This document shows, in pieces, positions 560-53,534 of a DNA stretch of 64,000 bases. Both the position numbers and the translations under genes were made by a program. Within the stretch, counting starts at the first letter, position 1; each line of letters begins with the position of its first letter. The notes beneath the pieces are model-generated. The model saw only the letters and a list, made by a program, of their open reading frames with translations. It was not told where the DNA came from and made no database searches. The DNA is from an uncultured Thermococci archaeon (GTDB lineage: Archaea; CAYQAE01; CAYVLA01). The stretch covers positions 64,001-128,000 of the forward strand of contig CAZJVP010000099.1 of NCBI GenBank assembly GCA_964549615.1, given 5' to 3'.

Positions 560-1858
560 ATGATCCTCCACCCGAGGCTGCGGTACAGGGAGATCAGGTC
601 GTTCAGCAACGAGCTCAGGACGCTGTCCGAAGTGATCCGGTTGGAACGTTTGCCCTTGGGGGCGATCAGGGATCGCCAGGCGCGGCTTCTCCGCTGGATT
701 GTGCGGTACAGCTACAGGAACGTCCCGTTCTACAGGGACTCCTTCCAGAGATGTGACATCCATCCTGATCAGATCAGGTCGACGGCCGACCTGGACAAGC
801 TGCCAGTCCTCACCAAGGAGCAGGTTGTTTGCAACTACCCCCACCGGATGGTCGCGGAAGGGTACGACTCCGAGACATCCTTTCGATGCAGGTCGAGCGG
901 AACAAGCGGCATCCCCGCCACATACCTTTCCGATTGGGCGACAAGGGATGCAAACTTCGCGCTGCTTTACAGGGCAAGATCCCTCTTCGGGTACAGGCCG
1001 AAGCATCTGGAATGCATCTTCACCTATCTGGCCCCGGCGACGAGGTGGTATCAGAGGTTAGGCTTCTGCAGGAGGATCAGAATCAGCCTACTCCAGCCGC
1101 TTGAGGATTCGATTGAACAGGCCATCCGTCTTCGCCCCGACGTCTTGTACAGTGTGCCTTCCTATCTCCGGACGCTGTGCCTGGAGGGTTCAGAACGGCT
1201 CGGCGCGCTCCCCTTGGTCTTGGTCGTTTCCTCAGGGGAGGTCCTTGACCCCAAGACCCGGGAAATCCTCCGAGAAGGCTTCAGGGCACCCGTGCTGGAT
1301 CTGTACGGCGCGGCCGAACAGCCCTATGTGGCGTCAGAGTGCCCCCTTCAAAGCGGTCTACACGTAAACATGTACAACACCCTGATCGAGGTGGCGAGGG
1401 ATGGGGAAGGGGCTGCGCCCGGTGAGACGGGCGAGATCCTCCTGACGACCTTGACGAACAGGGCGATGCCGCTCATCAGGTACCGGATGGGGGACGCAAG
1501 CCGAATTTTGCCGGACGAATGCTGCTGTGGGCGGCACGGCGAGATGCTTGACCGGATCCAGGGGCGATGCGACGACTTCCTCAAGAGTAGGACGGGACGA
1601 GAAGTTGCGGCCATAGTTGTGGAGGCTGCGGTTCTCAGCAACGCACGCGTCAAGGCGTTCAGGGTGATTCAGAGGAGCCCTTCTAGGCTTGAGATCCAAT
1701 CCGTGGGGAAGATAGAAGACGAGGCCGCGGCAAGGATCGCCGACAGCATGCGGCAAGCCCTGATGGATCAGCGCCTTGAGGTCGAGTTCCGGGATGTGGA
1801 AGCCATAGATCCGGACCCATCCGGCAAGAGAAGGGTCGTGATCCGCGAAAGCTGGTGA
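560..1858 (+). CDS. Phenylacetate-CoA ligase family (PaaK/CapK-like) adenylate-forming enzyme 1
   Basis: RSSGTSG P-loop, DLYGAAE, LIRYRMGD, GRCDDFL and C-terminal SGKRR motifs. Confidence 0.88.
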   Translation: MILHPRLRYREIRSFSNELRTLSEVIRLERLPLGAIRDRQARLLRWIVRYSYRNVPFYRDSFQRCDIHPDQIRSTADLDKLPVLTKEQVVCNYPHRMVAEGYDSETSFRCRSSGTSGIPATYLSDWATRDANFALLYRARSLFGYRPKHLECIFTYLAPATRWYQRLGFCRRIRISLLQPLEDSIEQAIRLRPDVLYSVPSYLRTLCLEGSERLGALPLVLVVSSGEVLDPKTREILREGFRAPVLDLYGAAEQPYVASECPLQSGLHVNMYNTLIEVARDGEGAAPGETGEILLTTLTNRAMPLIRYRMGDASRILPDECCCGRHGEMLDRIQGRCDDFLKSRTGREVAAIVVEAAVLSNARVKAFRVIQRSPSRLEIQSVGKIEDEAAARIADSMRQALMDQRLEVEFRDVEAIDPDPSGKRRVVIRESW

Positions 1859-1910
1859 ACGGAGCGAGGAACCCTGTTTCCGGGTCTCGGGGAACCACCT
1901 GATGCCAGGG

Positions 1911-2723
1911 TCAGGCGTGCAAGGGGCGGGGATGCTTGCGCAGAGAGCATAGCACTGGGAGGAGACGAAGCGCATGACGCTTCCCGGACACCCTCAGACG
2001 CATCGTGAGAAGTGACAGAAGCAAAGAATGGATGCGCAACGACCTGACCTCCCCCCAGACGTGGATCTGCGCGTCATGTTCCTGGCATATCGATATTCCG
2101 CCATCCTCGATCTGAACGCAGAAAGGTACAATGCCTGATAGATCGAAACTTATGTGCAGCGGCTGTCGCCCCCCCTTCCCTGAACGTGCTCGCCCGATGT
2201 CCGGCAGAACCGTTCTCAGGAACCGCTCCACCGGGCGGACCGAGAGCAACTTCGTGTAGACGGTCCCACAGTCGCGAACCAACGGTGCGCCGCTCACCTT
2301 GGACCAGAAGAACCTGCGCGTTTCGGGGGCGGCAACCCCGTAGCCGACAAGGGCCTCCCCCTCCCGGGCTATCGACCGCCTCCACATGTACAGGCTCGTC
2401 CCGATGCCCAGCCTCCTGTAGTCAGGGTGAACGACAACCAGCCCGCTTGCCGCGGGAACCACGAAGCCCGGTGCGATCTTAAGGTTCTGCAGGGTCGTCA
2501 GCCAACAGCCCACGACCGTGTTCTCCACCTCGGCCACCGCCGAGAGGTCGGCCCTGAATACGGGGCTCCTCAGGAGCGCCCACTCCAGGGATTCGTCCGA
2601 ACGCTCCCCGTACCCGGCCCTGATGATCTCGGCAACGGCCCCTAGGTCCCTGCCCTCCAAGGGCCGAATCCTCGCCCCGGCCCTGTTGGAATTCAGAACA
2701 TTGCCCCCCTCGGCACGAACCAC
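1911..2723 (-). CDS. GNAT N-acetyltransferase with SCP2-like C-terminal domain
   Basis: Motif A VVHPDYRRLGIGTSL; C-terminal beta-rich ISFDL..FCVQIEDGGISI..AQIHVWG segment. Exact start uncertain. Confidence 0.75.
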   Translation of the reverse strand: MVRAEGGNVLNSNRAGARIRPLEGRDLGAVAEIIRAGYGERSDESLEWALLRSPVFRADLSAVAEVENTVVGCWLTTLQNLKIAPGFVVPAASGLVVVHPDYRRLGIGTSLYMWRRSIAREGEALVGYGVAAPETRRFFWSKVSGAPLVRDCGTVYTKLLSVRPVERFLRTVLPDIGRARSGKGGRQPLHISFDLSGIVPFCVQIEDGGISICQEHDAQIHVWGEVRSLRIHSLLLSLLTMRLRVSGKRHALRLLPVLCSLRKHPRPLHA

Positions 2724-3460
2724 TTGGACCTAACCCGCAGTGATCTGACAAGCTTCAGCGCCCTTCGCGCATTCCAGGCGGGCGAAAAAGAAATTTTGCC
2801 CAAGATCCAGTCCCGCAGCCCGGGCCCGCCTTGGAAAAGAATCCGTCCCAGGGTGCTCTCCTCGACCGCTAGGACGACCTCCGCCGTCGAGCCCTCGCTG
2901 ACGGAGACGCCCTCCTCGGTCACCTCCACCCTAAATGCCGAAGCTGTGCCGTCCTTCCTGAGAACCCTGAGAAGATAGGTCCCTTTCGGCGGCGGAGACC
3001 TCGCGAGCACCTCGCAAAGGAGGCCGGAGGCGTTCGCCACCGAGACCGAGAAGGTTCGAAGGAGCCTCTTGCGCCCCATCCTCAGCGACTCACAGGCCTG
3101 CTTCATCACTCCGTCATCGTCAGGCGCGTTCATCACGATCCTGTCGAAGCCGCGCTCGATTGCCTGCTTCTCGGCGGCCCGGAGGAGCGATGTCATTACC
3201 GCTACCCCGTCATCATCCGGATCGTAGCAGGGATCCAGTATCTCCCCGTTCTTGGCAAGCGTTAGGCACCCGACCAGCCTATCGCCCCTGCAGGCAACAA
3301 GGACTCCTGGCCCAACCTCCGGGCGAAGGCGGTTGAACCATTTCCAAAAGTCAGGAGTCCTCGGAGTATGCCCCGCGTAGGCCGAGTAGCACTTCTCGTA
3401 TATCCGCGAGATCTCAAGTTCGTCTCCCTCTATGTAGTGGCGGACCGTGATCGGGGCCAT
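2693..3460 (-). CDS. GNAT-fold protein with SCP2-like C-terminal domain (Eis-like architecture)
   Basis: ITVRHYIEGDE..RTPDFWKWF..LVACRGDRLVG..LLRAAEKQAIERG; C-terminal FRVEVTEEGVSVSEG..LGRILF. Confidence 0.7.
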   Translation of the reverse strand: MAPITVRHYIEGDELEISRIYEKCYSAYAGHTPRTPDFWKWFNRLRPEVGPGVLVACRGDRLVGCLTLAKNGEILDPCYDPDDDGVAVMTSLLRAAEKQAIERGFDRIVMNAPDDDGVMKQACESLRMGRKRLLRTFSVSVANASGLLCEVLARSPPPKGTYLLRVLRKDGTASAFRVEVTEEGVSVSEGSTAEVVLAVEESTLGRILFQGGPGLRDWILGKISFSPAWNARRALKLVRSLRVRSKWFVPRGAMF

Positions 3461-3481
3461 ACGCGTAGGGACGTCGCCGGC

Positions 3482-3491
3482 GGCTTAAAAG
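3482..3491 (-). promoter_or_regulatory. TATA box CTTTTAAGCC (identical copy at 23612-23621)
   Basis: The same decamer lies 22-24 nt upstream of two different GNAT starts (3460 and 23588). Confidence 0.55.
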
Positions 3492-3791
3492 ACTAGCAGG
3501 GTGATAAAGACCACTTGGAAATCCCTATCCGACGGGAAGGCGGAGAGATCGAAACGCATCGATTCGTCAGATATCTGCTTTATCTGTCGCCGTCACCGGT
3601 GAGCTGGACGAAGACCGGGATGGGTCGGCGAATCCGGGACCTGCCACGTCCCGCCCCGGTCAAACGGCCCGGAAGCGATGCCATGTACCACAGATCGGCC
3701 CGCATTATCCGAGCAGAGCTAGATGAAGCGGTGCATTCTGGCCAGCTTGCAGCAAGATCCGAAGCCCGGAGCAGGAAGGCGTGGTGATGGA

Positions 3792-4763
3792 GTGAAGAAG
3801 ACAAAGATGGGCATACTAGGCCTGTGCGCGCTGGCCATAGCCCTAGCGGTAACGGCCGCGTACCTGGCCAACCAGAGGGCGCCGCGCACCTTGACCATGG
3901 CTGGAACCAGCAGATCGGGCACGGCATACTGCGTCTATGCTTACGGGGTCGAGAAAGGCATCTTCCGCAAGCATGGCGTGAACGTCAGTCTCGTGCTTTT
4001 CAAGGATGTCTACACCATGACGCTTAGCTTCATCAGCGGCAGCGTCGACGCCATACCGCTGTCGCCAAGCATTGCTGCCAGCACGTACAACGAGGGCGAG
4101 AAGTTCAGGATAGCCATGGCTCTCAGCGACTCGGCGGAGCACAAGCTCCTTGCCCGCCCGGAGATATCCGACATCTATGCCCTCAAGGGGTGCAAGCTGG
4201 GCGTCCATGGGCGCACGTCCGACGACTACAACGTGATGAAGTGGTACTTCGAAAGCAAGGGGATCGACATCGAAAACGACATGGAGGTGGTCGAGATCAG
4301 GACACCGGCCAACCTCGTGACCAGCTACATGATGGGTCAGCTGGATGCGGTTGTGCTGTGGGGCGGCTACGCCTATGATGTGGAGTCCGCAGGCGCTTCC
4401 GTCCTTCTGAGCACCACGCAAGCCCTGAAAGAGCTCATAGGGTACGCCCACTACCTCCCCGTCTTCGTGTTGAGGGATGACTTCCTCGACACCCAGAGGA
4501 CAACTGCCGACAACTTCCTTCGCGCTGTCAGGGAGATTGCAAGGGAGGTCACCGCACACCCGGACGAGGCTGCTGAGATAGTGGCAAGGTACAACGAAGA
4601 ACCCGTGGAGAAGACGAGGGCAGTCATCGCCATGACTCATTACATGGGGGATCTGGACGAGGAGGTCAAGGAAGGGATCCTCGCCTTCTTCGACTACGCG
4701 GTGCAGAAAGGATTCCTGACAGCTTCCCCGGGCGACGAGATATTCTACGACGATTGGAGGTAG
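3792..4763 (+). CDS. NitT/TauT/SsuA-family ABC transporter substrate-binding protein
   Basis: N-terminal anchor, EKGIFRKHGVNVSLV, LKGCKLGV, GQLDAVVLW, HPDEAAEIVA. GTG 3792 is preceded by GGTGA. Confidence 0.88.
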   Translation: MKKTKMGILGLCALAIALAVTAAYLANQRAPRTLTMAGTSRSGTAYCVYAYGVEKGIFRKHGVNVSLVLFKDVYTMTLSFISGSVDAIPLSPSIAASTYNEGEKFRIAMALSDSAEHKLLARPEISDIYALKGCKLGVHGRTSDDYNVMKWYFESKGIDIENDMEVVEIRTPANLVTSYMMGQLDAVVLWGGYAYDVESAGASVLLSTTQALKELIGYAHYLPVFVLRDDFLDTQRTTADNFLRAVREIAREVTAHPDEAAEIVARYNEEPVEKTRAVIAMTHYMGDLDEEVKEGILAFFDYAVQKGFLTASPGDEIFYDDWR

Positions 4764-4776
4764 GGCCCGGTCGCCT

Positions 4777-5541
4777 TCACGCCGGCTGGTATCTGCGGAC
4801 GCGTCTCTCAAGCGGCCTGAACACCAATTGGTCGAACGCCTGCAGCACCGCCACGATGACGATCGCCCATGCGAATATCTCGTCTGTCCTGAGCCTCTCC
4901 CAGGCGAAGCTTATGGCGTAGCCGATGCCGCTCTGTGCTCCGAGCACCTCGGCGATCACGCTCACCTTCCAGGCGAGCGACATGGCCACCCGGGATCCGG
5001 TCAGGATGTAGGGGAAGATGCTCGGGATGACGACGTTGGAGAAGATGGACTCCTTGCTGTGCCCGAATATCCCGGCCATCTCGACCAGCGTTTGGTCGAC
5101 GTTCCTTATCCCCTGCAGTATGTTCACGGCGAGTATGGGGAAGGCGATGGCCCACACGACGAAGATGGGCGAAAGCGAGCTGATGCCGAACCATATGATG
5201 GCAAGGACGATCCATATCGCGGAAGGTATGGACTGGAGGAAAAGGACGATCATCTCCAAAGAGGCGCGCGCCGACGGGCTGCGCCCTGTCAGGAAGCCGA
5301 GCAGCATGCTCAGCGCGAGGCCTATGCAGAATGCCAGACCGACCCTGAACAGCGTATGCGCGACATGGAACGCGATCTTGCCGGAGGATGCCAGTTGGAG
5401 AAAGGCCGCCGCGACCTCCGGAGGCGAGGGGAGAACGACGCGGGAGAACTGGGTCGATGCAGCCCACCAGATGGCGATGACAAGAGGAATCGCCAAACCC
5501 GCTGCCAAGTAGCTCGTCTTCGAGACTGACATCCTCGACAC
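4777..5541 (-). CDS. NitT/TauT ABC transporter permease
   Basis: LPSPPEVA, IPSAIWI, EAA-like loop LVEMAGIFG..VVIPSIFPYILTG, AEVLGAQSGIG. Confidence 0.92.
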   Translation of the reverse strand: MSRMSVSKTSYLAAGLAIPLVIAIWWAASTQFSRVVLPSPPEVAAAFLQLASSGKIAFHVAHTLFRVGLAFCIGLALSMLLGFLTGRSPSARASLEMIVLFLQSIPSAIWIVLAIIWFGISSLSPIFVVWAIAFPILAVNILQGIRNVDQTLVEMAGIFGHSKESIFSNVVIPSIFPYILTGSRVAMSLAWKVSVIAEVLGAQSGIGYAISFAWERLRTDEIFAWAIVIVAVLQAFDQLVFRPLERRVRRYQPA

Positions 5542-5543
5542 GT

Positions 5544-6824
5544 CTATACGGGCAGATCCGGAATGATCTGAACCCTCTTCTCGCCCCGCTCAGCGGGTAA
5601 CTCGCCCGGCCGGACCAGCTTCACCTCGAAGGTCAGGCCGGTCTTGTTCTTGAGTTCTGCGGCGACCGCCTTGACCAGTTCGTCCTCAAAAGCAGTCCTC
5701 ACCCACGAGTTCAGCTCGCAGATCAAGGCGGGATGGGATCTGGGCCTGACCTGGATGAGGAAGTTGCCCGAGAGTTCGGGACAGTGCTTGACGATCCTCT
5801 CAACCGTGCTGGGACTCACGAGAACCCCGCGGATCTTCAGCATGTCGTCGAGCCGGCTGATGTCCTCGGAGATCCTCTGATGGGTCCGACCGCATGCGCA
5901 GGGCTCCTCGCTGAGGACTTTCCCTCTGTCGCCGGTCCTGTACCTCACAAGAGGCATGGTGAACCTCTGCAAAGTGGTCACCACGATCTCCCCGACCTCC
6001 CCGGCCGCCACCTGCTCGCCGGTCTTGGGGTCCACGACCTCAAGTAGGCACACGTCGTGCCATACGTGGAGGCCGTCGTGGGCCTCGCATTCGTTCCCGA
6101 TTCCCCCGGTTTCGGTGGTGCCGTAGCTGTTGAAGAGTTCGGCGTCAAGCCTTTCCTGTATCTCCTTCCTTGTGCTTGGCTCAAGCCGCCCCGCTGTCGA
6201 AAGTGCTACCCTGAGCGGAAGCTTCGAGAAGTCGACGCCCATCTCCTCCCCGACCTGCGCGATCCTGAGATGGTAGCTTGGCACGGCGTTGAGGACCGTC
6301 GTTCCCATCGTCTTCATCAGCCAGATCTGCCTCTGGGTGTTGCCGGGGCCAGCCGGAATCACAAGGCAGCCCAGCCTCTCGGCCGAGGCGTGTCCGCTAA
6401 GCCCTGCGGCCCAGAGTCCATAGGCCAACGTCATCTGGTAGACGTCGCCCGGCCTGACGCCCCTCATCATCAGGGATCTGGCGCCGAAGTTGGCAAGGGC
6501 GTCGATGTCGCTTCTGGAGAGCAGGACGCCGGCGGGCCTGCCGCTTGACCCCGAGGTCAAGTAGAGCCTCGCCAGTTCGTCCCTGGGGACGGCGCAGAAG
6601 CCGTACGGGAAGCCGTCCACGATCACGTCCTTCGATATGAAGGGAAGCTTTGAGAACTCCTCTCTCGAGGATGGGGCCGAGGTGAAGCCGGACTGGGACC
6701 ACAGCCTCCTGTAAGTCTCCATGTTCCAGGCGTGCCTACAGATCTTGCGCAGCAGCCCTTCCTGAAGCTTGTCGAGGGCTTTCCTGGGCATCGTCTCGAT
6801 CCTCGGATGGTAGTAGTCCGTCAA
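5544..6824 (-). CDS. paaK: Phenylacetate-CoA ligase (canonical PaaK-like)
   Basis: FPYGFCAVP, TSGSSG, YGLWAAGL, PAGPGNTQRQI, NSYGTTE, RYRTGD, RLDDMLKIRGV. Confidence 0.85.
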   Translation of the reverse strand: MTDYYHPRIETMPRKALDKLQEGLLRKICRHAWNMETYRRLWSQSGFTSAPSSREEFSKLPFISKDVIVDGFPYGFCAVPRDELARLYLTSGSSGRPAGVLLSRSDIDALANFGARSLMMRGVRPGDVYQMTLAYGLWAAGLSGHASAERLGCLVIPAGPGNTQRQIWLMKTMGTTVLNAVPSYHLRIAQVGEEMGVDFSKLPLRVALSTAGRLEPSTRKEIQERLDAELFNSYGTTETGGIGNECEAHDGLHVWHDVCLLEVVDPKTGEQVAAGEVGEIVVTTLQRFTMPLVRYRTGDRGKVLSEEPCACGRTHQRISEDISRLDDMLKIRGVLVSPSTVERIVKHCPELSGNFLIQVRPRSHPALICELNSWVRTAFEDELVKAVAAELKNKTGLTFEVKLVRPGELPAERGEKRVQIIPDLPV

Positions 6825-7561
6825 GATGAACTCCCCAGCAGTCTTACGATCTCCTCCCTGACGCGCAGCAGCCGGGGGCTGGAGGGATCGCGCGGCTTCC
6901 CGTCCTCAAGCGTTATGTCGGCCTTGATCGTCGCCGGGCAGGAGGAGTAAACGATGATCCTGTCGGCCAGAAAGAGGGCCTCGTAGAGGTCGTGGGTCAC
7001 GAAGACCGTGGTCTTGTTTGCCTTCTCGATCACCAACACGAACTGCCCCAGAACCCTTTTCCTGGTTGCGACATCGAGCGAGTTGAACGGTTCGTCCATG
7101 AGGAGGAGGCTGGGTTCCAAGACGAGGGCTCTTGCCAGCGCCAGCCTCTGTTTCTCGCCGCCGGATAGGTTGGCCGGGCCATCGTTCTGCCTGTCGCCGA
7201 GTCCCACCATCTCTAGGAGCGCCAGGGACCTTGATCGCCTCGCCTCCGGGTTGGGCTCTATCGGCTCTATGCCAAACTCGACGTTGCCCAGCACGCTCCT
7301 CCAGGGCAAAAGTCTGGGCTCCTGGAAGACGTAGCCGACGCGTGTGCCGGCGGTGCCGACCGGCTTGCCGTCGATCTCCATCTTCCCCTCATCCGGCCTG
7401 ATGATGCCGGCTATGACCTTGAGGGTCGTCGTCTTGCCGCAGCCGGTGGGACCCAGGATGCAAGCGATCCCGCCGTCGTTGATGCTAAAGGAGATGCGGT
7501 CGATGACCTTTCCTCTCTGGGGAAAGGAGACTGATATGTTGTCCAGCGTCAGCGACACCAT
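6821..7561 (-). CDS. NitT/TauT ABC transporter ATP-binding protein
   Basis: Walker A GPTGCGKTT, VFQEPRLLPW, LSGGEKQR, LLMDEPF, FVTHD. Confidence 0.95.
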   Translation of the reverse strand: MVSLTLDNISVSFPQRGKVIDRISFSINDGGIACILGPTGCGKTTTLKVIAGIIRPDEGKMEIDGKPVGTAGTRVGYVFQEPRLLPWRSVLGNVEFGIEPIEPNPEARRSRSLALLEMVGLGDRQNDGPANLSGGEKQRLALARALVLEPSLLLMDEPFNSLDVATRKRVLGQFVLVIEKANKTTVFVTHDLYEALFLADRIIVYSSCPATIKADITLEDGKPRDPSSPRLLRVREEIVRLLGSSS

Positions 7562-7894
7562 GGCACGTTCAAGTAGGCAGTCTCGAGGCTGAAATACCTA
7601 TTTGGGGCATTGGCCTGAAGCCGGATCGGAGCCTGTGACAGGGATCGGATGCTCCTGAAATTCTTCAAATCCAAGATCCTCCACCGGGCAGCAGGGACTC
7701 TGCCCGAGCCGGATTCCTCGGGATACCCGGATGCCGCCTAGGACCTGAAGGCCGGACCAAGGGACTCCAGCTAGGGCGATCGCCAAGACCCGTCTCGGAT
7801 CAACAGCCGTTCCGTCGTCGCACGGGGAGAAAGGCGTGGCAATCAAGCGCCGTATGATGCACACATTGAAATCGTTAGGTTGCATTAGCCTTGG

Positions 7895-36551: not shown

Positions 36552-36561
36552 CTCCTGTCCC

Positions 36562-45649: not shown

Positions 45650-45973
45650 GGCGGGAACCGTCCGAGGTGATCAGAAAGAGGCCGTCCCGCAGTTGGCGAC
45701 GCGAAGCACGCACGGCGCGCTTCGGATCGCTTCGATCGAGAGCGATGCAACCCTTTTCCAACCCGCTTCGAAGTGGATCCGAGTCAAAGCGGGGCGGGAG
45801 TTGTTGAGGGCGGTACCTGGCTATCTCCTGGCGTACGGGCGGCCTGCGTCTGGCTCTCTCCGGGAGCGACGTCCGGTCCGGGCAAGCCGGATAATTCCCG
45901 GTCCGGAGAGTCCCGGAACAACTTTTCGCGCCGGACCGTCCCAGCCGTCCGGGCATCCAAGGAGGACCGATCG

Positions 45974-47875: not shown

Positions 47876-49162
47876 TTGAAAATCGCCTTCGTTGCACCTT
47901 TCGGACTCAACGTTCTCCCGCCGTACCAGCTATCCGGAGGAATATGGATTTACGAGGTGGCGCGCAGGCTCGGCACCCGGCACGATGTGTGGGTGTACTC
48001 CTGGCGTAACCCCCTCCAAGCCGAACCGCGCAGAGATGACGTTGTACACTATAGGTTCCTCGACTCCGTGCTCGCTAGGCCCACCCGTAAGGTTTTGCAC
48101 CCGCTCATGGGGCTGAGGGGTCCGCGAACACCGTATTTTGCATCGGCGCTCGCCAACCCGGGCTATAGCCTCGCAGTCGTACGAGACATCCTTCGCCAGC
48201 ATTTCGACGCAATCCTAGCGGATGAAGTCTTCACACTTCCCGTCCTCTTGGGCAGTTTTTCCCGTCGGCCTCGCGTGGCTTTCCGCATGCGCGCCGAGTG
48301 GCTCGCTCAGTTCGACCGCTCCTTCGTCGAGCGGCGGATCAGGTCAAGCGACCTCGTTCTCGGCTGCAGCAGATACGTCACCGAGGCCGTGAGGCGACGA
48401 TTCCCAGAATACGCGGACCGATGCCTGACGGTGTACGAGGGCGTAGACCAGGGACGGTTCGCCCCGCTCGGAGCCCGGAATGGTAGAGATCACGATCCAA
48501 CAACCTTGCTCTTCGTGGGAAGGGTTTCGCCCGAGAAGGGGCTTCACACTTTGCTAGATGCCTTCTACAAGGTCCTCAAGGAGTGCCCGGACTGCAAGTT
48601 GCAGGTCGTGGGACAATACACGTCCGCCCCACTTGAGATGATCATCTTGCCGAGCCATGACCCTGGCGTTCGTTCATTGGCTCGCTTCTACCGACCTGAA
48701 TCCCAGACAGCCTACCGCGACTACCTCTTGGTTCAAGCCCAAGCCCTCGGGATTCGTGACCGGGTCAGCTTCTCAGGGCCAAGGCCGTACGAGGACATGC
48801 CGAGCTTCTATCGATGTGCGGACGTACTCGTCAACCCATCGTTCGTCGAAACATTCGGGAGGTCCCTGATCGAAGGGATGGCCTGCGGGCTTCCGGTTGT
48901 CGCGACGAGGGTAGGGGGCATGCCGGAGATCGTCGATGAGGGGCGGAATGGCCTCATGGTCGATCCAGGCGATTCGGAGGCTCTATCCCAGGCCATTCTG
49001 AAGCTGGTCTTGAATCCGAGGCAGGCGCGGTCCATGGGTCTAGCAGGCCGCAAGAAGGCCATCGATCGCTTTGCGTGGGACGTGATTGTGCCCAGACTCC
49101 TGGAGATCATAGAAGATCCTCGTCCCAGGACTGCTCGCTCACTGGTCTCGCCAAAGAAGTGA
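47876..49162 (+). CDS. GT4 glycosyltransferase
   Basis: LFVGRVSPEKG, ADVLVNPS..ETFGRSLIEGMACGLPVVATRVGG. Confidence 0.93.
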   Translation: MKIAFVAPFGLNVLPPYQLSGGIWIYEVARRLGTRHDVWVYSWRNPLQAEPRRDDVVHYRFLDSVLARPTRKVLHPLMGLRGPRTPYFASALANPGYSLAVVRDILRQHFDAILADEVFTLPVLLGSFSRRPRVAFRMRAEWLAQFDRSFVERRIRSSDLVLGCSRYVTEAVRRRFPEYADRCLTVYEGVDQGRFAPLGARNGRDHDPTTLLFVGRVSPEKGLHTLLDAFYKVLKECPDCKLQVVGQYTSAPLEMIILPSHDPGVRSLARFYRPESQTAYRDYLLVQAQALGIRDRVSFSGPRPYEDMPSFYRCADVLVNPSFVETFGRSLIEGMACGLPVVATRVGGMPEIVDEGRNGLMVDPGDSEALSQAILKLVLNPRQARSMGLAGRKKAIDRFAWDVIVPRLLEIIEDPRPRTARSLVSPKK

Positions 49163-49399: not shown

Positions 49400-50557
49400 A
49401 TGAAGCAGATAGGAAATCTCACAATCGCGCTCCTCATCGTGCAATCCATCACTGCAGCGGTGCTCAGCGTTGACGCCGTGTCCCCGGGTCTTGACGATTT
49501 GGAGGTTTGGGTGGCCCGTGAGGCCATGAATCTGGTCGAACTGTCCCATCTTTGTGACGACCTTGCCGCGCAGATCTCTGGGGGCCGAACGGATGGTACG
49601 AACCTCGCCGACTTGCTTGCCAGCCTGTCCGACCGGCTTGAGGCAGTCAGGACCGCGCTGGATGGCCTCGAGGCGCAGATACGATCGATGGAGATGCCCG
49701 AATCGGATGTAACCGCAGGACTGCTCAAGGACATCGAACTTCTCAGGTCACAGAACGCCGCCCTTCGTGAGAAACTCCAGATCCTGAGGAAAGCAGCCTA
49801 CGCGGGGCCGCCCCTAGCTGAAGGCGGGAGTACGGACTCTAGGCTCGTGACAAGCGCTTTGGGCAAAGCAGCATACGCCATGCTCGTCGTCTCCCAGGAG
49901 ATGCGGGGAAGCTTTTTGGACATCTCGAGCATCATCGGAGCAGGCATCGGGACGCTCGCAAGGCTCAGCGATGCCACGGGTGGCCGGTTGCCAGTGGGCG
50001 CCACGCCCGGGCTCGTGGTCACCGTCTTCGCCGTCCTCCTTGCCTTCGCGCTGGTGAGCATGGCCATTCAGACCTACTACAGGGAAGCATTCGATCATAG
50101 GGCAGACGACACCCGCATCCCGGGCCTGCTAGTAGCGTCTGCCGTGCCCTGGGGTGATGTCTCCTCACCGACAGGTGGGCCATTCTTGGACATTTCTGCC
50201 AAAGGCGAGGCGACGGGCCGCGCTGGAAAGCTTTCGGACGCAGATGAGGAGTACGCCATCATGCTTCTGAAGCTCGGCTACAGGGAGGAGGCCCTCCGGG
50301 TCGTATCCCCCGGAACGACCACTCGGCATTCGCCCCGCGGCCAAGCACCACCCCGGGATGGGGGTCAGACCGATGGATCGCTCGTCGGGCGCGCAGGGCC
50401 CGGCCCCCTGGGCAGGCAAACGCGGCGCGATCCTGCGAGGCATTTCGGACAGGCAAGGAGGCTGTACAAGAAGGCCTTCAACTCGCTGATAATAGCGGGC
50501 AGAAGGAGCAGGCGGTACAAGATGGGGCCCATCCGACGGGCCGGGAAGAAACCCTAG
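49400..50557 (+). CDS. Hypothetical membrane protein with coiled-coil
   Basis: Hydrophobic N-terminus, heptad-rich region, internal TM (LVVTVFAVLLAFALVSMAI); GAGGTG SD and AT-rich promoter upstream. Confidence 0.6.
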   Translation: MKQIGNLTIALLIVQSITAAVLSVDAVSPGLDDLEVWVAREAMNLVELSHLCDDLAAQISGGRTDGTNLADLLASLSDRLEAVRTALDGLEAQIRSMEMPESDVTAGLLKDIELLRSQNAALREKLQILRKAAYAGPPLAEGGSTDSRLVTSALGKAAYAMLVVSQEMRGSFLDISSIIGAGIGTLARLSDATGGRLPVGATPGLVVTVFAVLLAFALVSMAIQTYYREAFDHRADDTRIPGLLVASAVPWGDVSSPTGGPFLDISAKGEATGRAGKLSDADEEYAIMLLKLGYREEALRVVSPGTTTRHSPRGQAPPRDGGQTDGSLVGRAGPGPLGRQTRRDPARHFGQARRLYKKAFNSLIIAGRRSRRYKMGPIRRAGKKP

Positions 50558-50811
50558 CGTTATTCCCCTAGCGGTCGAAGGGGAGATTCCCGTTGAGCGC
50601 TTGTACCCGTACCCGGCCGAGCACGCGTCGAAGACTTGCCCTGCCCGTCCTAGATGCGGTTCGTGGCCATGGATGCCAAGATCGATGAAGAACCGGGCGT
50701 GGTCCGCAGCCGGGTTGGGCCTCGGGTAGGTGCGGATCATGGGTGAGGAGAAGGAGGTCTTGCCGTTTGATCGGGACGCGACTAAGCTCAGGAAGATCTC
50801 AGGGGACGGGC

Positions 50812-51594
50812 ATGGCCGGAGAACCTTGTGAACTGGAGCGGCACAGGCAGACGAAGGAGACCTTCAGGCACCGATACGAGGTTGCATACGCGTCGGGATC
50901 GACGTACGCGGGGTTGGCACAAAGATGGCGCGAGGTCGTCGAGTTCCCGCTGGTATCGTCCGCGACCCCCCCGGGGCTTGTCCTTGACGCGGGTTGTGGC
51001 GACTGCACGTTGACCAGGTTCCTCTGCACCCCCTCAAGACGGATCATCGGACTCGACTTCTCATGCCATGCCCTGCAGGCCGCAAGGAAGTGGTTTCACG
51101 GCGCCAGCGATGAGACGATTCCGGAGCTGATGAGAGGGGATATCGATCGACTACCCTTCAGAGATGGTTGTTTTGACGGAACGGTCTGCGTCGGAACCCT
51201 GGAGTACTTTTCTGACCTGCGAGCGGTCCTCGCTGAGCTGGGAAGGGTCTCCAGAAGGGGCGCACGCTTGGTATTCACCGTGAGAAACAGGAGACGCGTG
51301 ATAGGGGCAACCCGCCACGGAGTTGAGAGTCCAGGGAACGTCTCCCCTTTGTTTGCCTTCCACGATGTAAAACAGGTGAAAAAGGCCGTGGAAGAGGCAG
51401 GAGGGCGGAATCCGAGGATCTTGCCGTACTTCGCCATCTCTCCGGCAGGCTTGGCAGGGCTCCTCGCCGCTTTGCCCGGCCCCCTGCAAAGAGCGGGATT
51501 CCGGGTCTTGTGCCTGCTGGAGAGGATGGCGACAGCTACCCGTGCCGGGTTGCTCATCTCGAGGGTGCTCCTCGTCTCCTACACCGTGACCTGA
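50812..51594 (+). CDS. Class I SAM-dependent methyltransferase
   Basis: VLDAGCGD, GLDFS, GDIDRLPFRDGCFD, LAELGRV. Confidence 0.88.
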   Translation: MAGEPCELERHRQTKETFRHRYEVAYASGSTYAGLAQRWREVVEFPLVSSATPPGLVLDAGCGDCTLTRFLCTPSRRIIGLDFSCHALQAARKWFHGASDETIPELMRGDIDRLPFRDGCFDGTVCVGTLEYFSDLRAVLAELGRVSRRGARLVFTVRNRRRVIGATRHGVESPGNVSPLFAFHDVKQVKKAVEEAGGRNPRILPYFAISPAGLAGLLAALPGPLQRAGFRVLCLLERMATATRAGLLISRVLLVSYTVT

Positions 51595-51668
51595 CCCGCA
51601 TCGTCCGCCTGGAACACCCTCGCCGTAGAAGACCGATCCCCGACGAACGCGTAGCCCATCCCGACCGA

Positions 51669-53534
51669 TCACTTTGGCACCGGTCGACCGGGCCTATCGC
51701 CGAACGTGACGCGGAGCCAGATCTCCAGATTTACGAGCGTCCCGATGAGCTCCCAGTTCCGAGGGATGTCGGAGAAAAGCGAAAGCACGCCGTCCCGATC
51801 CAGAAGCCCAGATGCCATCAGCCTGCCTCCAAGCACCATCTCCTCGGCGAAAGCACGGAGCCCGTTTGCATACCATCGCATTAGAGGTGCGTAGAAACCG
51901 CTCTTGCCCCGCACCACCAGCCGCATAGAAAAGCCCTCTTTTTCCATCAATCTCCTGAGGAAATCCTTCGTACGTGGCCTCTCGTAGAATGCGGCTGGCT
52001 CCCTCTCTAGAACCGGCTCGCACACCCGTCTATCCATGAAGGGGTAGGTTGGGACGACGGACGCAGACCGATGCCAGTTCCACAGCGCCCTGAACCTAGA
52101 TGGGTCCGACTTGGTGAAGCTCGTGAACCTGTAGGCGTTGAAAGGGCCTAGCCTGTACGCCCTGTCAAGCTCGCTTCGAAGGACGGCCATGGCTTTCGCC
52201 CATGCGGAATCTGGCACTAGGCTCGTCGATATCACTGCGCGCGCCTTCCTAGAGGAGCGGTCGAGTCTCTTCCGGGGCAGGAAGGTCGGAAGAACTCCCT
52301 GGATGAGAATCCTGAGCAGGTGCCGAAAGGCGGCCCGTCGGGGGGTTGTCGAGGGATCGAGATACCTTGCCAAGCAGTGCCTAAGCAGCCTGAGGCCCGA
52401 GGCAGTGACCCGCCCCTGGTATACGAGCGAATATAGCGTATCGGCCGCCAACGCTTCCAAGAGCGACGGGCGGCCCCCAAAGGACCCGTCTGCCCCATCC
52501 CCGCTGAAGACGTGCTTCGTCCCCTGCTCGGAGGCATGCAAGGCAGCGCAGTAGTAGGGCAGCCCTCCGTCTCCTTTTGCGCTTTCCTCGGCCACCCTTA
52601 TGCACTTCTCAAGAAGCCTCGGAAACGCCTCCAACGAGAGCGGCCGACCCGCCTTGTGGACTGAGCCGATTCGCTCGCTCGCAAGACGAGCGTATGGTTC
52701 CTCATCCCAACCTCTCTCGTCGATGCCCAAGGACAGGGTCACGAGCCGGGGTTCGGTCTCGGTCTCGCGGGCCAGCTCTGATACCAGACAGCTCACCAGA
52801 CTCGAGTCGGTCCCCCCGCTGAGGTAGGAGTAGAACGGTGGCTCAAGACCCGTCATCCTTTGAGCTACAGACTCTCGGAGACGTTGCCGGAACTCGTCTT
52901 GCGATAGGGCTTCTGTTCTTCTGCGCCGAAGTACCTTCTCTGCGTCCCAGTACACGCACTCCGTGAGCCCCTGCTCGTCGATCTGGATGTAGTGACCTGG
53001 CCTCGCCTTCCTCACAGGCCTCAGCAGTGTCCGAGACGAGCCAATCTTGCCATCGACCAGGAGTTCAAGGAGGCCAGTCTCGTCGTAGTCCGGCTCGGTG
53101 TCAAGCTGCGCCAAAGACCGGAAGGAAGAGGAGAACACCAGAGCGCTGTTGACCATCCTGTAGTACAGCGGCCGACCGCCGAAGTGATCTCTAGCCAAGA
53201 TAGCGCGTGTCTGTCCAGGATGGTATATGACGGCCAGGAATTCGCCGTTGAGACCCTGGAGGACGCTAGGACCGATCTGGCCGTAGAGCCTGCCAATCCC
53301 TGCGGCACTTCCTCCCTCCAGAGGGGGAAACAGCCTACCCGACAGGGCAACGAACACGTCTGAAGTCGATAACCATTCGAGCCTCTCCGCTAGGCTTTCA
53401 TAACCTCGGATCTCGAAAGGGCCCGAGCAGTAGACATGATCCGGCTCGCCTAGATCGATGTTTCCTGCGACCGCATCGATCAGGGATGTCGGGCTGCCTT
53501 CGCCCCTCGAGTAGCCGCCCACCAGGGTGCTCAT
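51669..53534 (-). CDS. AsnB-like amide synthetase 3 (Ser at nucleophile position)
   Basis: MSTLVGGY start, LNGEF, ARDHFGGRPLYY, LSGGTDSS, SGDGADGSFGG, YPFMD, KSGF. Confidence 0.85.
   Translation of the reverse strand: MSTLVGGYSRGEGSPTSLIDAVAGNIDLGEPDHVYCSGPFEIRGYESLAERLEWLSTSDVFVALSGRLFPPLEGGSAAGIGRLYGQIGPSVLQGLNGEFLAVIYHPGQTRAILARDHFGGRPLYYRMVNSALVFSSSFRSLAQLDTEPDYDETGLLELLVDGKIGSSRTLLRPVRKARPGHYIQIDEQGLTECVYWDAEKVLRRRRTEALSQDEFRQRLRESVAQRMTGLEPPFYSYLSGGTDSSLVSCLVSELARETETEPRLVTLSLGIDERGWDEEPYARLASERIGSVHKAGRPLSLEAFPRLLEKCIRVAEESAKGDGGLPYYCAALHASEQGTKHVFSGDGADGSFGGRPSLLEALAADTLYSLVYQGRVTASGLRLLRHCLARYLDPSTTPRRAAFRHLLRILIQGVLPTFLPRKRLDRSSRKARAVISTSLVPDSAWAKAMAVLRSELDRAYRLGPFNAYRFTSFTKSDPSRFRALWNWHRSASVVPTYPFMDRRVCEPVLEREPAAFYERPRTKDFLRRLMEKEGFSMRLVVRGKSGFYAPLMRWYANGLRAFAEEMVLGGRLMASGLLDRDGVLSLFSDIPRNWELIGTLVNLEIWLRVTFGDRPGRPVPK

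Follow-up and report, generated by a model that had tools for sequence, protein, structure and literature searches.

Known systems and closest relatives

Archaea and bacteria can transfer surface sugars from lipid phosphates outside the membrane. In the archaeal precedent, mannose is loaded onto dolichyl phosphate by AglD, flipping is helped by AglR, and the outside transfer is performed by AglS (PMC3871713). The bacterial precedent is a set of three-component systems, among them one with a UbiA-type lipid-phosphoribose synthase and a GT-C (PMC11127046). The lipid-phosphate-sugar to GT-C steps that we propose here from the genes follow the logic of AglD/AglR/AglS, GtrB/GtrA/Gtr* and ArnC/ArnD/ArnT. 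The present island is a surface-sugar cluster of an already familiar kind, noteworthy in its details.

The window (the whole stretch of 64,000 nucleotides analysed) was annotated with Pfam and NCBIfam profile searches, in which 67 plus 81 ORFs were scanned. Glycan-synthesis genes predominate, in line with a first-pass annotation of the same DNA; its enzyme families were recovered, and its VPE-tailed exported proteins only in part. On balance, we regard 560–53534 as a mosaic island in which an uncultured Hadarchaeota-related archaeon encodes the synthesis and tailoring of cell-surface glycans, and not as one integrated system. The island appears to combine lipid-phosphate-sugar to GT-C steps with adenylation and acyl-transfer tailoring.

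The closest relatives are loci in Hadarchaeota MAGs, with 55–74% amino-acid identity and local synteny, so that the archaeal origin assumed earlier is the most likely one; a Theionarchaea protein with 46% identity is also among the relatives. Locus L001 of a Hadarchaeota MAG has the order GNAT, ABC permease, PaaK-family ligase B, ABC ATPase and PaaK-like enzyme C (58–74% identity), followed by methyltransferases, a GT4, an epimerase and a GT2. The predicted co-clustering was found in part: glycosyltransferases adjoin the PaaK-like gene in three of four related loci, but AsnB-like and GT-C genes co-cluster in none of the four, the three archaeal contigs among these being just 4.4–12.8 kb long.

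Mosaic structure

The segment 15738–19421 is duplicated at 41362–45649 with 71–86% nucleotide identity, and one copy has decayed. The range also contains three toxin-antitoxin modules: a PIN toxin with a MazE/AbrB-type antitoxin (24944–25608, minus strand; PIN 42.4 bits, MazE_antitoxin 31 bits) and, on the plus strand within 38997–40988, a PIN toxin (38997–39398, 26.2 bits) followed by a nucleotidyltransferase/HEPN pair (39802–40988; NTP_transf_2 34.8 bits, HEPN 73.8 bits). Toxin-antitoxin modules, pseudogenes and gaps with few ORFs break up the region, which is a mosaic and not the single system proposed earlier. What the island shows directly is the order of its genes, their identity at family level, the duplication and the lesions.

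Genes for proposed lipid-linked sugar transfer

Eight of the nine glycosyltransferases previously counted are located within 560–53534 (three GT2, two GT4 and three GT-C of the PMT_2 type), while the ninth is a GT2 cut off at the window edge and outside the range (3–467, minus strand; Glycos_transf_2 102.4 bits). The three GT-C enzymes scored 50–57 bits with PMT_2 (cut-off 26.1). The first (9343–10821, minus strand; 50.2 bits) is contiguous with WecB, a CE4 deacetylase and the GT2 named GT2_a. The UDP-GlcNAc 2-epimerase WecB (10818–12203, minus strand) was confirmed by TIGR00236 at 270.8 bits against a curated cut-off of 210.15; all other NCBIfam equivalog matches lie below their cut-offs. The CE4 polysaccharide deacetylase (12256–13149, plus strand) was likewise recovered, with Polysacc_deac_1 at 55 bits; its ORF is open from 12043, the Met at 12256 is the likely start, and the protein has no signal peptide. 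GT2_a (13201–14004, plus strand; Glycos_transf_2 113.3 bits) is of the polyprenyl-phosphate sugar synthase type (ArnC/DPM-like), with ArnC as top NCBIfam match (87 bits vs. 529) and a haloarchaeal Dol-P hexose transferase at 63 bits.

The second such synthase, GT2_c (28825–29802, minus strand; Glycos_transf_2 91.3 bits), is PpgS/DPM-like, its top NCBIfam match being PpgS (77.1 bits vs. 370), and it directly adjoins the second GT-C (29816–31456, minus strand; PMT_2 57.3 bits), for which a PDB sequence search gave no match. The third GT-C (45773–47614, plus strand) scored 56 bits. The earlier idea of a DPM-like GT2 feeding a GT-C fits this layout, as each ArnC- or PpgS-like GT2 is near a PMT_2-type GT-C and the signal-less CE4 is beside the first. 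The remaining GT2 (26779–27861, plus strand; Glyco_trans_2_3 36.7 bits, MftF-type 80.1 bits, below cut-off) has C-terminal membrane segments, visible as hydrophobic stretches at the end of its translation. A GT4 at 33871–34947 (minus strand) is weak (Glyco_trans_1_4 28 bits), and another at 47876–49162 (plus strand; Glycos_transf_1 139.1 bits) has homologues, 35–44% identical, beside PaaK-like genes in loci L001 and L002.

Acyltransferases and AsnB-like enzymes

Eight GNAT genes had been counted, of which seven are intact with Pfam matches of at least a gathering score and the eighth is a pseudogene. Two are weak: 1911–2723 (minus strand; Acetyltransf_1 22.6 bits vs. cut-off 20.7) and 2693–3460 (minus strand; 23.6 bits), the latter kept beside the ABC/PaaK operon with a 58% identical homologue in L001. 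A FemAB-like acyl/aminoacyl transferase (20091–21245, plus strand; FemAB_like 40.6 bits) is followed on the minus strand by two FemAB-related Acetyltransf_6 proteins (21242–22390, 81.5 bits; 22380–23687, 80.9 bits) and a small GNAT acetyltransferase (23712–24281; Acetyltransf_1 46.8 bits). The seventh is a 397-aa protein (43407–44600, plus strand; Acetyltransf_1 28.1 bits, Acetyltransf_9 26.1 bits). Its decayed copy (17705–18474, plus strand) was recognised by tblastn in two frames; it covers only residues 145–396 of the paralogue, has at least three stops and a frameshift, and is also marked by repeats D4, D6, D9 and D11.

All three AsnB-like enzymes reported earlier are present, with Asn_synthase scores of 155.2, 145.0 and 124.5 bits, but the amidation role given to them needs revision. 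They are located on the minus strand at 15738–17669 (enzyme 1, 155.2 bits), 41362–43458 (enzyme 2, 67% identical to enzyme 1) and 51669–53651 (enzyme 3, 40% identical to enzyme 1). LVG replaces MCG in these proteins, where 90 of 120 homologues among those listed begin with MC, and SGGxDS/T is kept. Since the N-terminal Cys nucleophile is gone in all three, they are not glutamine amidotransferases of the usual kind.

PaaK-family ligases and alternative readings

Three PaaK-type ligases were found, as annotated earlier. Enzyme A (560–1858, plus strand) has no Pfam match (NCBIfam PaaK 136.8 bits, DVU_1553 136.2 bits, both below cut-offs). Enzyme C (7895–9205, plus strand; DVU_1553 family 108.1 bits, AMP-binding 18.4 bits) has relatives in Hadarchaeota MAGs at 60% and 55% identity. 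These two were detected only via PaaK/DVU_1553/F390-type NCBIfam models. Acid-CoA ligase B (5544–6824, minus strand) matched Pfam AMP-binding (77.8 bits) and AMP-binding_C_2, and NCBIfam PaaK at 279.7 bits (PaaK models 264–280 vs. cut-offs of 646–700); among proteins of known structure, PDB 4r1l is its top match (295 bits). All three score under every equivalog cut-off, and their adenylation motifs are kept (alignment A5).

Ligase B is embedded in an ABC-importer operon whose arrangement is kept in a Hadarchaeota MAG. The operon comprises a permease (4777–5541, minus strand; BPD_transp_1 76.5 bits), the ligase and an ATPase (6821–7561, minus strand; ABC_tran 114.2 bits), which are 70.5%, 69.6% and 73.6% identical in L001, respectively; an NMT1/SsuA-type substrate-binding protein is encoded at 3723–4763 (plus strand; NMT1 45.9 bits, SsuA_fam 58.2 bits). 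This context suggests that an acid is taken up and activated. A role in catabolism or other metabolism fits the position of the gene inside an importer operon equally well, and the context neither proves nor excludes a glycan acylation role.

Several other enzymes could act on membrane lipids: a UbiA-superfamily membrane prenyl/phosphoribosyl transferase (32827–33804, plus strand; UbiA 58.4 bits, no match in a PDB sequence search), a geranylgeranyl-reductase-family flavoprotein (31514–32827, plus strand; TIGR02032 76.2 bits, below cut-off 158.8), an FAD amine-oxidase/desaturase-type oxidoreductase (13996–15429, minus strand; Amino_oxidase 80.2 bits, PRK07233 235.4 bits vs. 252) and a B12-binding radical SAM enzyme (36562–38070, minus strand; Radical_SAM 44.9 bits, HpnJ model 123.2 bits vs. 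577.6). We also counted against the glycan-island reading that one deacetylase stands against seven acyltransferases, that no carboxylate source for the AsnB-like enzymes is visible in the window, and that AsnB-like and GT-C genes were not seen in the four related loci, whose contigs are short. The Pfam and NCBIfam scans revealed no uronate-forming UDP-sugar dehydrogenase in the window. Among the 67 plus 81 ORFs, there was no flippase (Wzx, GtrA, MATE or SMR), AglB/STT3 oligosaccharyltransferase, initiating phosphosugar transferase, carrier protein or sugar aminotransferase, so that only part of the pathway is encoded in the window.

Proposed working of the island

Preferring the glycan-island reading, we infer the chemistry of all island enzymes from their families; substrates are guesses, and the equivalog matches other than WecB are below curated cut-offs. 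WecB would convert UDP-GlcNAc to UDP-ManNAc. The two DPM/ArnC/PpgS-like GT2 enzymes would load single (amino)sugars onto polyprenyl or dolichyl phosphate at the cytoplasmic face, where the CE4 may strip an N-acetyl group, and the UbiA-family enzyme may play a similar loading part. After flipping by a component that the window does not encode, the three GT-C enzymes would transfer the sugars outside the membrane to a glycoprotein or glycan, with chain extension by soluble GT2 and GT4. The three PaaK-family enzymes would activate carboxylic acids to acyl-AMP or acyl-CoA, one acid probably being imported via the ABC system containing ligase B, and the seven GNAT/FemAB-like transferases would move acyl or aminoacyl groups onto amines. 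The AsnB-like enzymes, with the glutaminase Cys lost and the ATP-pyrophosphatase loop kept, would activate a carboxylate by adenylation and then couple it with an amine or free ammonia instead of nitrogen drawn from glutamine. Of the earlier glycan-decoration interpretation, the GT2 to GT-C layout and archaeal origin are supported; the single system, the sorting link and the PEP-CTERM analogy are not, and the amidation step needs revision.

Other genes of the island encode a class I SAM methyltransferase (50743–51594, plus strand; Methyltransf_11 63.6 bits), a membrane protein with two hydrophobic segments and no Pfam or NCBIfam match (49400–50557, plus strand), and a PEP-utiliser swivel-His domain protein (34944–36614, minus strand; PEP-utilizers 79.7 bits). 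The last resembles the C-terminal half of PEP-synthase/rifampicin-phosphotransferase-type kinases (PDB 5fbs, 103.6 bits over residues 313–521).

Tailed surface proteins

The link proposed between the island and a new signal for protein sorting is weak. When all six frames were scanned for PE plus a hydrophobic stretch near the stop, four matches resulted, two of them in ORFs without a Pfam match. The other two do carry VPE and a membrane tail, as annotated, but are paralogues from the one duplication; paralogy thus explains why the motif recurs, and its recurrence does not demonstrate an independent signal. Copy 1 (18499–19421, plus strand) is frameshifted by a 1-nt deletion at about 18933–18936. 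Copy 2 (44765–45649, plus strand) encodes a signal peptide, a beta-rich body, VPE with a membrane segment and then about 30 residues, and an in-frame TGA at 44930–44932 divides the signal peptide from the body. Because both copies are interrupted, these genes may go unexpressed. Copy 2 lies within a co-directional run of GNAT, VPE, GT-C, GT4, unknown and methyltransferase genes. The VPE motif is not conserved in the sole outside homologue with a tail (P0080).

The tails matched none of the sorting-domain models (PEP-CTERM, PGF-CTERM and others), and no exosortase or archaeosortase was found in the window; the suggested xPE-CTERM link thus comes down to two paralogous lesioned genes. A family-level analogue of exosortase/PEP-CTERM loci was also rejected, as the XrtA-associated models scored far under their cut-offs (TIGR03108 124–154 vs. 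817, TIGR03006 51.5 vs. 276, TIGR03098 40 vs. 592). N-x-T/S sequons are conserved among the VPE-family proteins, which also carry signal peptides. The small beta-rich tail proteins could be cargo of a new sortase; they are more simply explained as membrane-anchored, probably N-glycosylated accessories that bind or process glycans. A third exported beta-rich protein (27823–28812, minus strand) has weak GH16/ConA-like matches, both below cut-off (Glyco_hydro_16 18.5 bits, 3keto-disac_hyd 15.2 bits). It carries a membrane/signal segment at the N-terminus, and its C-terminal tail is hydrophobic but not VPE. Outside the range, an 878-aa secreted DUF11-repeat surface protein (54307–56943, plus strand; DUF11 63 bits, IgGFc_binding 66.2 bits, MYXO-CTERM just 13.8 bits vs. 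cut-off 20) is the only intact protein with the classic motif-TM-basic end.

Gene Content of the Island

Long, non-overlapping open reading frames (ORFs) with high third-position GC were chosen, and 67 of them were scanned against Pfam and NCBIfam. A further 81 small or intergenic ORFs were scanned against Pfam only. The G+C content of the window is approximately 0.60 throughout, and tRNA and Rfam scans of the whole window gave no match. About 35 long ORFs are intact, with a third-position GC of 0.67–0.83 and retained catalytic motifs.

The enzyme inventory of the first-pass annotation for 560–53534 was essentially right. Pfam and NCBIfam recovered three PaaK-family ligases, three AsnB-like proteins, WecB, and one CE4 deacetylase. 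Eight GNAT genes had been counted; seven are intact GNAT/FemAB-type genes, whereas the eighth is a pseudogene. Eight of the nine glycosyltransferases claimed lie within the range (three GT2, two GT4, and three PMT_2-type GT-C), but the ninth is a truncated GT2 at 3–467, outside it. WecB scored 270.8 bits, above its curated cut-off of 210.15, and all other NCBIfam equivalog matches fall under their cut-offs. Flippase, oligosaccharyltransferase, initiating transferase, carrier protein, and aminotransferase genes were not detected among the 67 + 81 ORFs of the window, nor did Pfam or NCBIfam detect a UDP-sugar dehydrogenase for uronate supply there.

It is plausible that the region is devoted to glycan synthesis, and several points weigh against a complete, single integrated pathway. 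It fits better within the broad category of variable islands for surface-glycan biosynthesis in which GT-C side-branch steps are combined with tailoring enzymes, and as a variable glycosylation island it is plausible but looks ordinary. Its lineage-specific families are a PaaK-like clade, cysteine-less AsnB-like proteins, and orphan membrane-anchored beta-rich proteins.

Host Lineage and Related Loci

The ligase PaaK-like C (7895–9205, forward strand) belongs to a small clade whose members share 33–60% identity, the sole named one coming from a Theionarchaea MAG (46%). A profile scan with the alignment of this clade, covering one genome per species, found four loci. Three belong to MAGs named 'Candidatus Hadarchaeota archaeon' (60%, 55%, and 38% identity), on contigs of 4.4–12.8 kb, and the fourth belongs to an uncultured bacterium (29%). 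The related locus L001, from a Hadarchaeota MAG, retains the order GNAT, ABC permease, PaaK_B, ABC ATPase, and PaaK-like C, with identities of 58%, 70.5%, 69.6%, 73.6%, and 59.7%, respectively. A taxonomy look-up places both Hadarchaeota and Theionarchaea in the Archaea, kingdom Methanobacteriati. Because the nearest named relatives are both archaeal, an archaeal host is well supported, though only through the PaaK-like C clade and the genes syntenic with L001, in agreement with the archaeal origin given by the first-pass annotation.

In L001 and two other related loci, L002 and L004 (three of the four), the neighbours of the PaaK-like gene include GT4, GT2, sugar epimerase, C-methyltransferase, or Wzx genes. 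The AsnB-like and GT-C genes were found in none of the four, of which the three archaeal contigs span just 4.4–12.8 kb. To our knowledge, the cell envelope of Hadarchaeota-like archaea has no experimental description, and none of the papers listed by a literature search on Hadarchaeota glycosyltransferases and S-layers mentions Hadarchaeota. The region thus provides a parts list for such an envelope: three GT-C, two Dol-P-sugar-synthase-like GT2, WecB, CE4, three ligases, seven acyltransferases, and three cysteine-less AsnB homologues.

Putative Acyl-Activating Ligases and the ABC Importer

PaaK_B (5544–6824, reverse strand) is a clear family member, with an AMP-binding match of 77.8 bits, PaaK models at 264–280 bits, and PDB 4r1l at 295 bits. 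PaaK-like A (560–1858, forward strand) and PaaK-like C are divergent and are detected by NCBIfam models alone (137 and 108 bits). In the alignment, the adenylation motifs are retained in all three proteins. The fold family and these motifs are shared with PaaK and with PaaK-like ligases of natural-product pathways (PDB 4r1l, 2y4o, 6siw, and 6wuq, the last being AjiA1). In contrast to the PaaK equivalog, whose cut-off is 700 bits, the three window proteins score only 279.7, 136.8, and 72.8 bits and lack paa genes nearby; Pfam and NCBIfam detected neither paa (phenylacetate) catabolic nor beta-oxidation genes in the window. Unlike classic PaaK, the two divergent copies belong to the small clade with Hadarchaeota and Theionarchaea members.

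In an operon for a NitT/TauT-type ABC importer, the PaaK_B gene separates the permease gene from the ATPase gene (5544–7561 in the window and 769–3554 in L001, 70–74% identity). A substrate-binding protein gene adjoins the importer in the window and is absent at that place in L001. The location of this ligase in the importer operon suggests that an imported acid is activated, for a purpose that the gene order leaves unspecified. We propose that the PaaK-like ligases and the GNAT/FemAB-like transferases would add acyl or aminoacyl groups, because three of the four related loci carry glycan genes beside the PaaK-like gene. A literature search tying PaaK or F390 synthetase to polysaccharides found no relevant paper. 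If the tailoring chemistry is true, archaeal glycans would bear a wider range of substituents than is known so far. The enzymes of interest would be the divergent PaaK-like clade and the cysteine-less AsnB homologues.

Proposed Lipid-Phosphate Sugar Donors and GT-C Transferases

The best-supported working reading is that the island serves extracytoplasmic glycosylation from lipid-phosphate monosaccharides. A GT2 enzyme would make the lipid-phosphate monosaccharide, and a GT-C enzyme would transfer the sugar outside the cell. We propose this logic because the gene layout and the best matches fit both the archaeal AglD/AglR/AglS system and bacterial three-component systems. The GT2-to-GT-C route given by the first-pass annotation is therefore plausible from ArnC- and PpgS-like matches and gene adjacency.

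The GT2 at 13201–14004 has ArnC as its best NCBIfam match (87 bits, cut-off 529), followed by a haloarchaeal Dol-P hexose transferase (63 bits). The GT2 at 28825–29802 best matches PpgS (77 bits, cut-off 370) and abuts GT-C 2 (29816–31456). PpgS is a synthase that is paired with Rv3779. For both window genes the GT2 domain is certain, and a role as polyprenyl-phosphate sugar synthase is tentative. GT-C 1 (9343–10821), WecB, a CE4 protein without a signal peptide, and the ArnC-like GT2 are contiguous. The GT-C fold of GT-C 1, GT-C 2, and GT-C 3 (45773–47614) is indicated by three PMT_2 matches (50.2, 57.3, and 56.0 bits; cut-off 26.1). Among the 67 + 81 window ORFs, Pfam detected no dedicated flippase (GtrA, Wzx/AglR, MATE, or SMR). 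In the Arn pathway, the CE4-fold enzyme ArnD removes the N-acyl group from a lipid-linked amino sugar. The CE4 protein of the window best matches TIGR03006 (51.5 bits), with no ArnD model at E ≤ 0.001. A UbiA-family gene stands beside a GGR-family reductase gene 1.4 kb from GT-C 2; neither the UbiA protein nor GT-C 2 matched a PDB sequence at E ≤ 1. An Atlas search with a 385-aa membrane protein returned no usable match.

In the AglD/AglR/AglS step of N-glycosylation in Haloferax volcanii, a GT2 charges dolichyl phosphate with one sugar inside the cell, and a PMT-like GT-C transfers this sugar outside (PMC3871713). The window resembles this system in that it has two candidate GT2 genes of this kind along with three PMT_2 GT-C genes. 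Its weak NCBIfam matches, all under their cut-offs, include the haloarchaeal Dol-P hexose transferase at 63 and 43 bits and AglJ at 58 and 55 bits. Unlike the Agl system, the window has no AglR/Wzx-type flippase and no AglB, belongs to a host of a different phylum, and carries three GT-C lanes with many acyl and adenylating enzymes that Agl lacks. PMC11127046 describes three-component systems (GtrB/GtrA/Gtr*, ArnC/ArnD/ArnEF/ArnT, and PPPRS/MATE/GT136) in which a donor synthase, either GT2 or UbiA, works with a GT-C. The signal-less CE4 beside the ArnC-like GT2 and a GT-C recalls the Arn system, whereas the window differs from the three-component systems in having no flippase gene, a CE4 without an ArnD match, and a UbiA protein without a detectable sequence match to solved structures.

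On the reverse strand, 33871–38070 forms a tight run of a GT4, a swivel-His PEP-utiliser protein, and a B12-binding radical SAM protein (HpnJ-like, 123 bits), with the GGR-family and UbiA genes divergent alongside. The swivel-His protein matches the C-terminal part of rifampicin-phosphotransferase-like PEP synthases, and its first ~240 residues have no match.

Cysteine-Less AsnB-Like Proteins

The AsnB-like proteins 1, 2, and 3 are encoded at 15738–17669, 41362–43458, and 51669–53651. Copies 1 and 2 share 67% identity, the third copy shares 40%, and the nearest outside relative reaches only ~31%. In the alignment, all three have Leu-Val-Gly at the Met-Cys-Gly position of the family, so that Val replaces the catalytic N-terminal Cys, and they carry N-terminal extensions of 20–70 residues. 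The MC start is present in 90 of the 120 best homologues listed. In Ntn amidotransferases, glutamine hydrolysis requires the N-terminal catalytic Cys. Because this residue is missing, the window proteins are predicted to be unable to hydrolyse glutamine.

The PP-loop (ATP-pyrophosphatase) motif is retained as SGGIDS, SGGIDT, and SGGTDS. The synthetase domain scored 124–155 bits against Asn_synthase and 140–174 bits against TIGR01536 (under its cut-off of 267). Among solved structures, the closest relatives are the hydroxyamidotransferase 7ylz (63.9 bits) and beta-lactam synthetase. The three window proteins could still activate a carboxylate by adenylation and then join it to ammonia or an amine. 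Amidation of uronic acids is only one possibility because the window has no UDP-sugar dehydrogenase. The three AsnB-like genes of the first-pass annotation are confirmed, but the missing glutaminase Cys means that its amidation claim needs revision.

VPE-Tail Proteins and Other Exported Proteins

All six frames were scanned for 'PE' preceding a hydrophobic stretch near a stop codon, which yielded four matches. Two fall in ORFs without a Pfam match; the other two are paralogues with a long identical lead-in before VPE, the motif preceding the C-terminal membrane segment. Copy 2 (44765–45649) has a signal peptide, an in-frame TGA at 44930–44932, a beta-rich body, VPE, about 20 hydrophobic residues, and about 30 more residues. 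Copy 1 (18499–19421) has GTA (Val) at the place of this TGA, and a 1-base deletion at ~18933–18936 shifts its frame. Each copy thus carries exactly one lesion, which could be true decay or an assembly error. Recoding of the TGA at 44930 as selenocysteine or another residue was ruled out, since copy 1 has Val (GTA) at the aligned position and the outside homologue P0080 has Ser. The alignment instead favours a nonsense change, or else an error of assembly, at 44930–44932.

The VPE-tail family is almost an orphan. A word-indexed search across 5.8 billion clusters found no entries beyond the window's own two. A full HMMER scan of 1.84 billion representatives gave seven matches: four are the window's own entries or fragments, two are weak repeat-protein matches, and the only real outside relatives are P0080 and the fragment P0082. 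P0080 (276 aa, 41% identity) shares the body and carries a signal peptide, and its C-terminal membrane segment ends in RFRR. It lacks VPE at the aligned place and has VPY eight residues further on. N-x-T/S sequons are conserved across the family, as is expected for exported archaeal glycoproteins.

The last 60 residues of both VPE copies and of a DUF11 protein were scanned against NCBIfam at E up to 10, and these tails, together with that of the protein at 27823–28812, against Pfam at E up to 0.01. PEP-CTERM, PGF-CTERM, and other sorting-domain models had no match to the VPE tails at these thresholds. The sole tail match was MYXO-CTERM in the DUF11 protein (13.8 bits, cut-off 20). A structure model of the VPE protein from a five-row alignment was poor and not usable (mean pLDDT 50.3, pTM 0.50), and a PDB fold search with this poor model gave no match at E ≤ 0.001 (TM ≤ 0.35). 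An Atlas model showed TM 0.55–0.60 to DUF3047-type beta-sandwich clusters, and a language-model feature search gave 0.86–0.91 to small PEP-CTERM/VPDSG-CTERM proteins of Verrucomicrobiota and Planctomycetota; both are leads only. A third exported protein (27823–28812) has weak GH16/ConA-like matches under cut-off and a hydrophobic tail differing from VPE.

The claim of exported VPE-TM proteins is therefore confirmed only in part, as there are just two, interrupted and paralogous. A new sorting signal tied to glycan decoration would rest on these two interrupted paralogues and is unsupported.

Comparison with Exosortase/PEP-CTERM Loci

The first-pass annotation likened the island to bacterial exosortase loci. 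By class, the window shares with XrtA/PEP-CTERM loci an AMP-forming ligase, an AsnB-like amidotransferase, a CE4 deacetylase, GT4, and FemAB-like proteins, as well as small secreted proteins with a C-terminal proline-containing motif and membrane segment. In contrast to those loci, it has no exosortase, PEP-CTERM HMM match, chain-length determinant, or bacterial sugar transferase, its AsnB-like proteins lack the glutaminase Cys, and its tail proteins are only two interrupted paralogues. Unlike PEP-CTERM ends, the VPE membrane segment is followed by ~30 residues, with no short basic end. Exosortase_EpsH or archaeosortase was not detected among the 67 + 81 ORFs, which cover the window only. For the archaeosortase system (PGF-CTERM and relatives), neither the sortase nor a cognate C-terminal domain was matched in the window.

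The XrtA-associated models scored 4–15 times under their cut-offs: 124–154 against 816.9 bits for TIGR03108, 51.5 against 276.2 for TIGR03006, and 40.2 against 592.35 for TIGR03098. The FemAB-type XrtA-associated model was absent from the NCBIfam matches of the 67 ORFs. A literature search for PEP-CTERM/exosortase with FemAB and ligase found no relevant paper. The analogy holds for enzyme classes but fails at each defining feature tested (exosortase, PEP-CTERM match, and cut-offs). The proposed link from glycans to sorted surface proteins found no support, there being no sortase in the window and no sorting model on the tails.

Duplication, Interruption, and Decay

The segment 15738–19421 is a diverged duplicate of 41362–45649, with eight repeat families at 71–86% nucleotide identity. 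Both segments contain an AsnB-like gene, a 397-aa GNAT gene, and a VPE gene. In the first copy, the GNAT gene is a pseudogene: only residues 145–396 remain, split between two frames and containing at least three stops. The run of glycan genes is broken by a PIN/MazE pair (24944–25608), a PIN gene (38997–39398), and a nucleotidyltransferase/HEPN pair (39802–40988), and ORF-poor stretches occur at 17.7–20.1, 24.3–26.8, and 38.1–39.8 kb. The window has at least seven toxin/antitoxin genes or pairs. A 147-nt piece at 58600–58746, the start of a GATase1-like membrane-protein gene (58549–59766), recurs at 24740–24886 with 98% identity. The latter looks like a recent fragment copy, in an ORF-poor gap beside a PIN toxin gene. 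Overall, the region looks like a recombination-prone variable island of several sub-clusters, not one operon-like system.

Alternative Readings

Two blocks of the island may have functions other than protein glycosylation. The left block (560–9205) may be a metabolic unit unrelated to surface glycans, in which the ABC importer takes up an organic or aromatic acid, the three PaaK enzymes activate acids, and the GNATs produce N-acyl amino acids or other small molecules, or else catabolism consumes the CoA esters. The strand run of PaaK_B with the permease and ATPase genes, kept in L001 at 70–74% identity, the adjacent substrate-binding protein gene, and the close structural-family match of PaaK_B to solved phenylacetate-CoA ligases (295 bits) would all suit such a unit. 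However, phenylacetate-catabolic and beta-oxidation genes are lacking in the window, the PaaK-like genes of L001, L002, and L004 lie directly beside GT4, GT2, epimerase, C-methyltransferase, or flippase genes, and the neighbours of the block are a GT2 at one end and GT-C and WecB at the other; we consider this reading unlikely. Somewhat less unlikely is that the middle block (28825–38070) and the FAD oxidase gene (13996–15429) serve isoprenoid membrane lipid modification or glycolipids rather than protein-linked glycans, by way of UbiA, the GGR-family reductase, the B12-radical SAM protein, the swivel-His phosphotransferase-like protein, and GT4/GT2. UbiA, the GGR family, HpnJ/HpnR-like B12 radical SAM matches, and HpnE/PRK07233-like FAD matches agree with lipid chemistry, and the GT4, PEP-utiliser, and radical SAM genes overlap or abut on one strand. 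The matches fall far under the lipid equivalog cut-offs (DGGGPL reductase 47 against 580 bits, HpnJ 123 against 578), the reductase and UbiA could equally tailor a carrier lipid, and the same block holds a GT-C and a Dol-P-sugar-synthase-like GT2, which fits carrier-lipid glycosylation.

Two further readings concern the island as a whole, and we regard both as very unlikely. The full model of the first-pass annotation is an integrated archaeal analogue of exosortase/PEP-CTERM systems, with deacetylation, re-acylation, amidation, and proteins sorted through xPE-CTERM by an archaeosortase encoded elsewhere. The ligase, amidotransferase, deacetylase, and GT4 classes do exist as XrtA-associated models with weak matches here, and PMC1569441 reports that EpsH has deacetylase, GT1-group, and chain-length genes in its neighbourhood. 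The VPE gene sits between GNAT and GT-C genes and was duplicated along with the AsnB-like and GNAT genes, the language-model leads of 0.86–0.91 point to PEP-CTERM/VPDSG-CTERM proteins, and the C-terminus of P0080 likewise consists of a proline-containing motif, then a membrane segment, then RFRR. Against this stand the lack of a sortase in the window and of a sorting-domain HMM match on any tail, the XrtA-associated scores 4–15 times under cut-off, the confinement of VPE to two interrupted paralogues and its absence at the aligned place of P0080, the ~30 residues beyond the membrane segment with no short basic end, a family of seven matches in 1.84 billion representatives (four from the window itself), and the toxin/antitoxin modules and pseudogenes that split the island. 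Alternatively, much of the region may be a decaying, recombination-prone variable island whose parts no longer cooperate. The decayed GNAT copy, the two interrupted VPE genes, the 147-nt fragment copied at 98% into 24740–24886, the three ORF-poor stretches, and the seven or more toxin/antitoxin genes or pairs speak for decay. The ~35 intact long ORFs, with their third-position GC of 0.67–0.83 and kept catalytic motifs, speak against it, and the single-base lesions could be assembly errors. The preferred reading remains glycosylation from lipid-phosphate monosaccharides. A bolder version of it is improbable: a Hadarchaeota-related archaeon would decorate its envelope by three parallel lipid-phosphate sugar-to-GT-C lanes, on sugars bearing unusual N-acyl and amide groups attached by a lineage-specific group of PaaK-like, FemAB-like, and cysteine-less AsnB enzymes. 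The duplicated cassette of AsnB-like, GNAT, small secreted beta-rich tail-protein, and GT-C genes would mark an undescribed anchoring or processing of a glycan-binding surface protein.

Other Features of the Window

Further toxin/antitoxin loci lie at 56916–58276, 60481–60723, 61549–62198, and 62830–63471. The types present in the window are four PIN/VapC toxins, MazE/AbrB and VapB antitoxins, and two nucleotidyltransferase/HEPN pairs, and 38067–38591 may contain a PIN-like remnant. A 49-nt repeat (61399–61447 and 62685–62733, 86% identity) is located near two PIN genes. The stretches 25608–26779 and 59766–61549, each longer than 1 kb, contain short ORFs only, with almost no family match, and may represent either decayed genes or DNA that is regulatory or non-coding.

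The DUF11 protein (54307–56943), outside the range under study, is the only intact protein with a textbook motif-TM-basic end. This secreted protein of 878 aa has an IgGFc_binding-like N-terminal region, DUF11 repeats, a C-terminal proline motif, a membrane segment, and RRKS. Its gene contains a perfect 96-nt internal direct repeat at 56178–56273 and 56517–56612.
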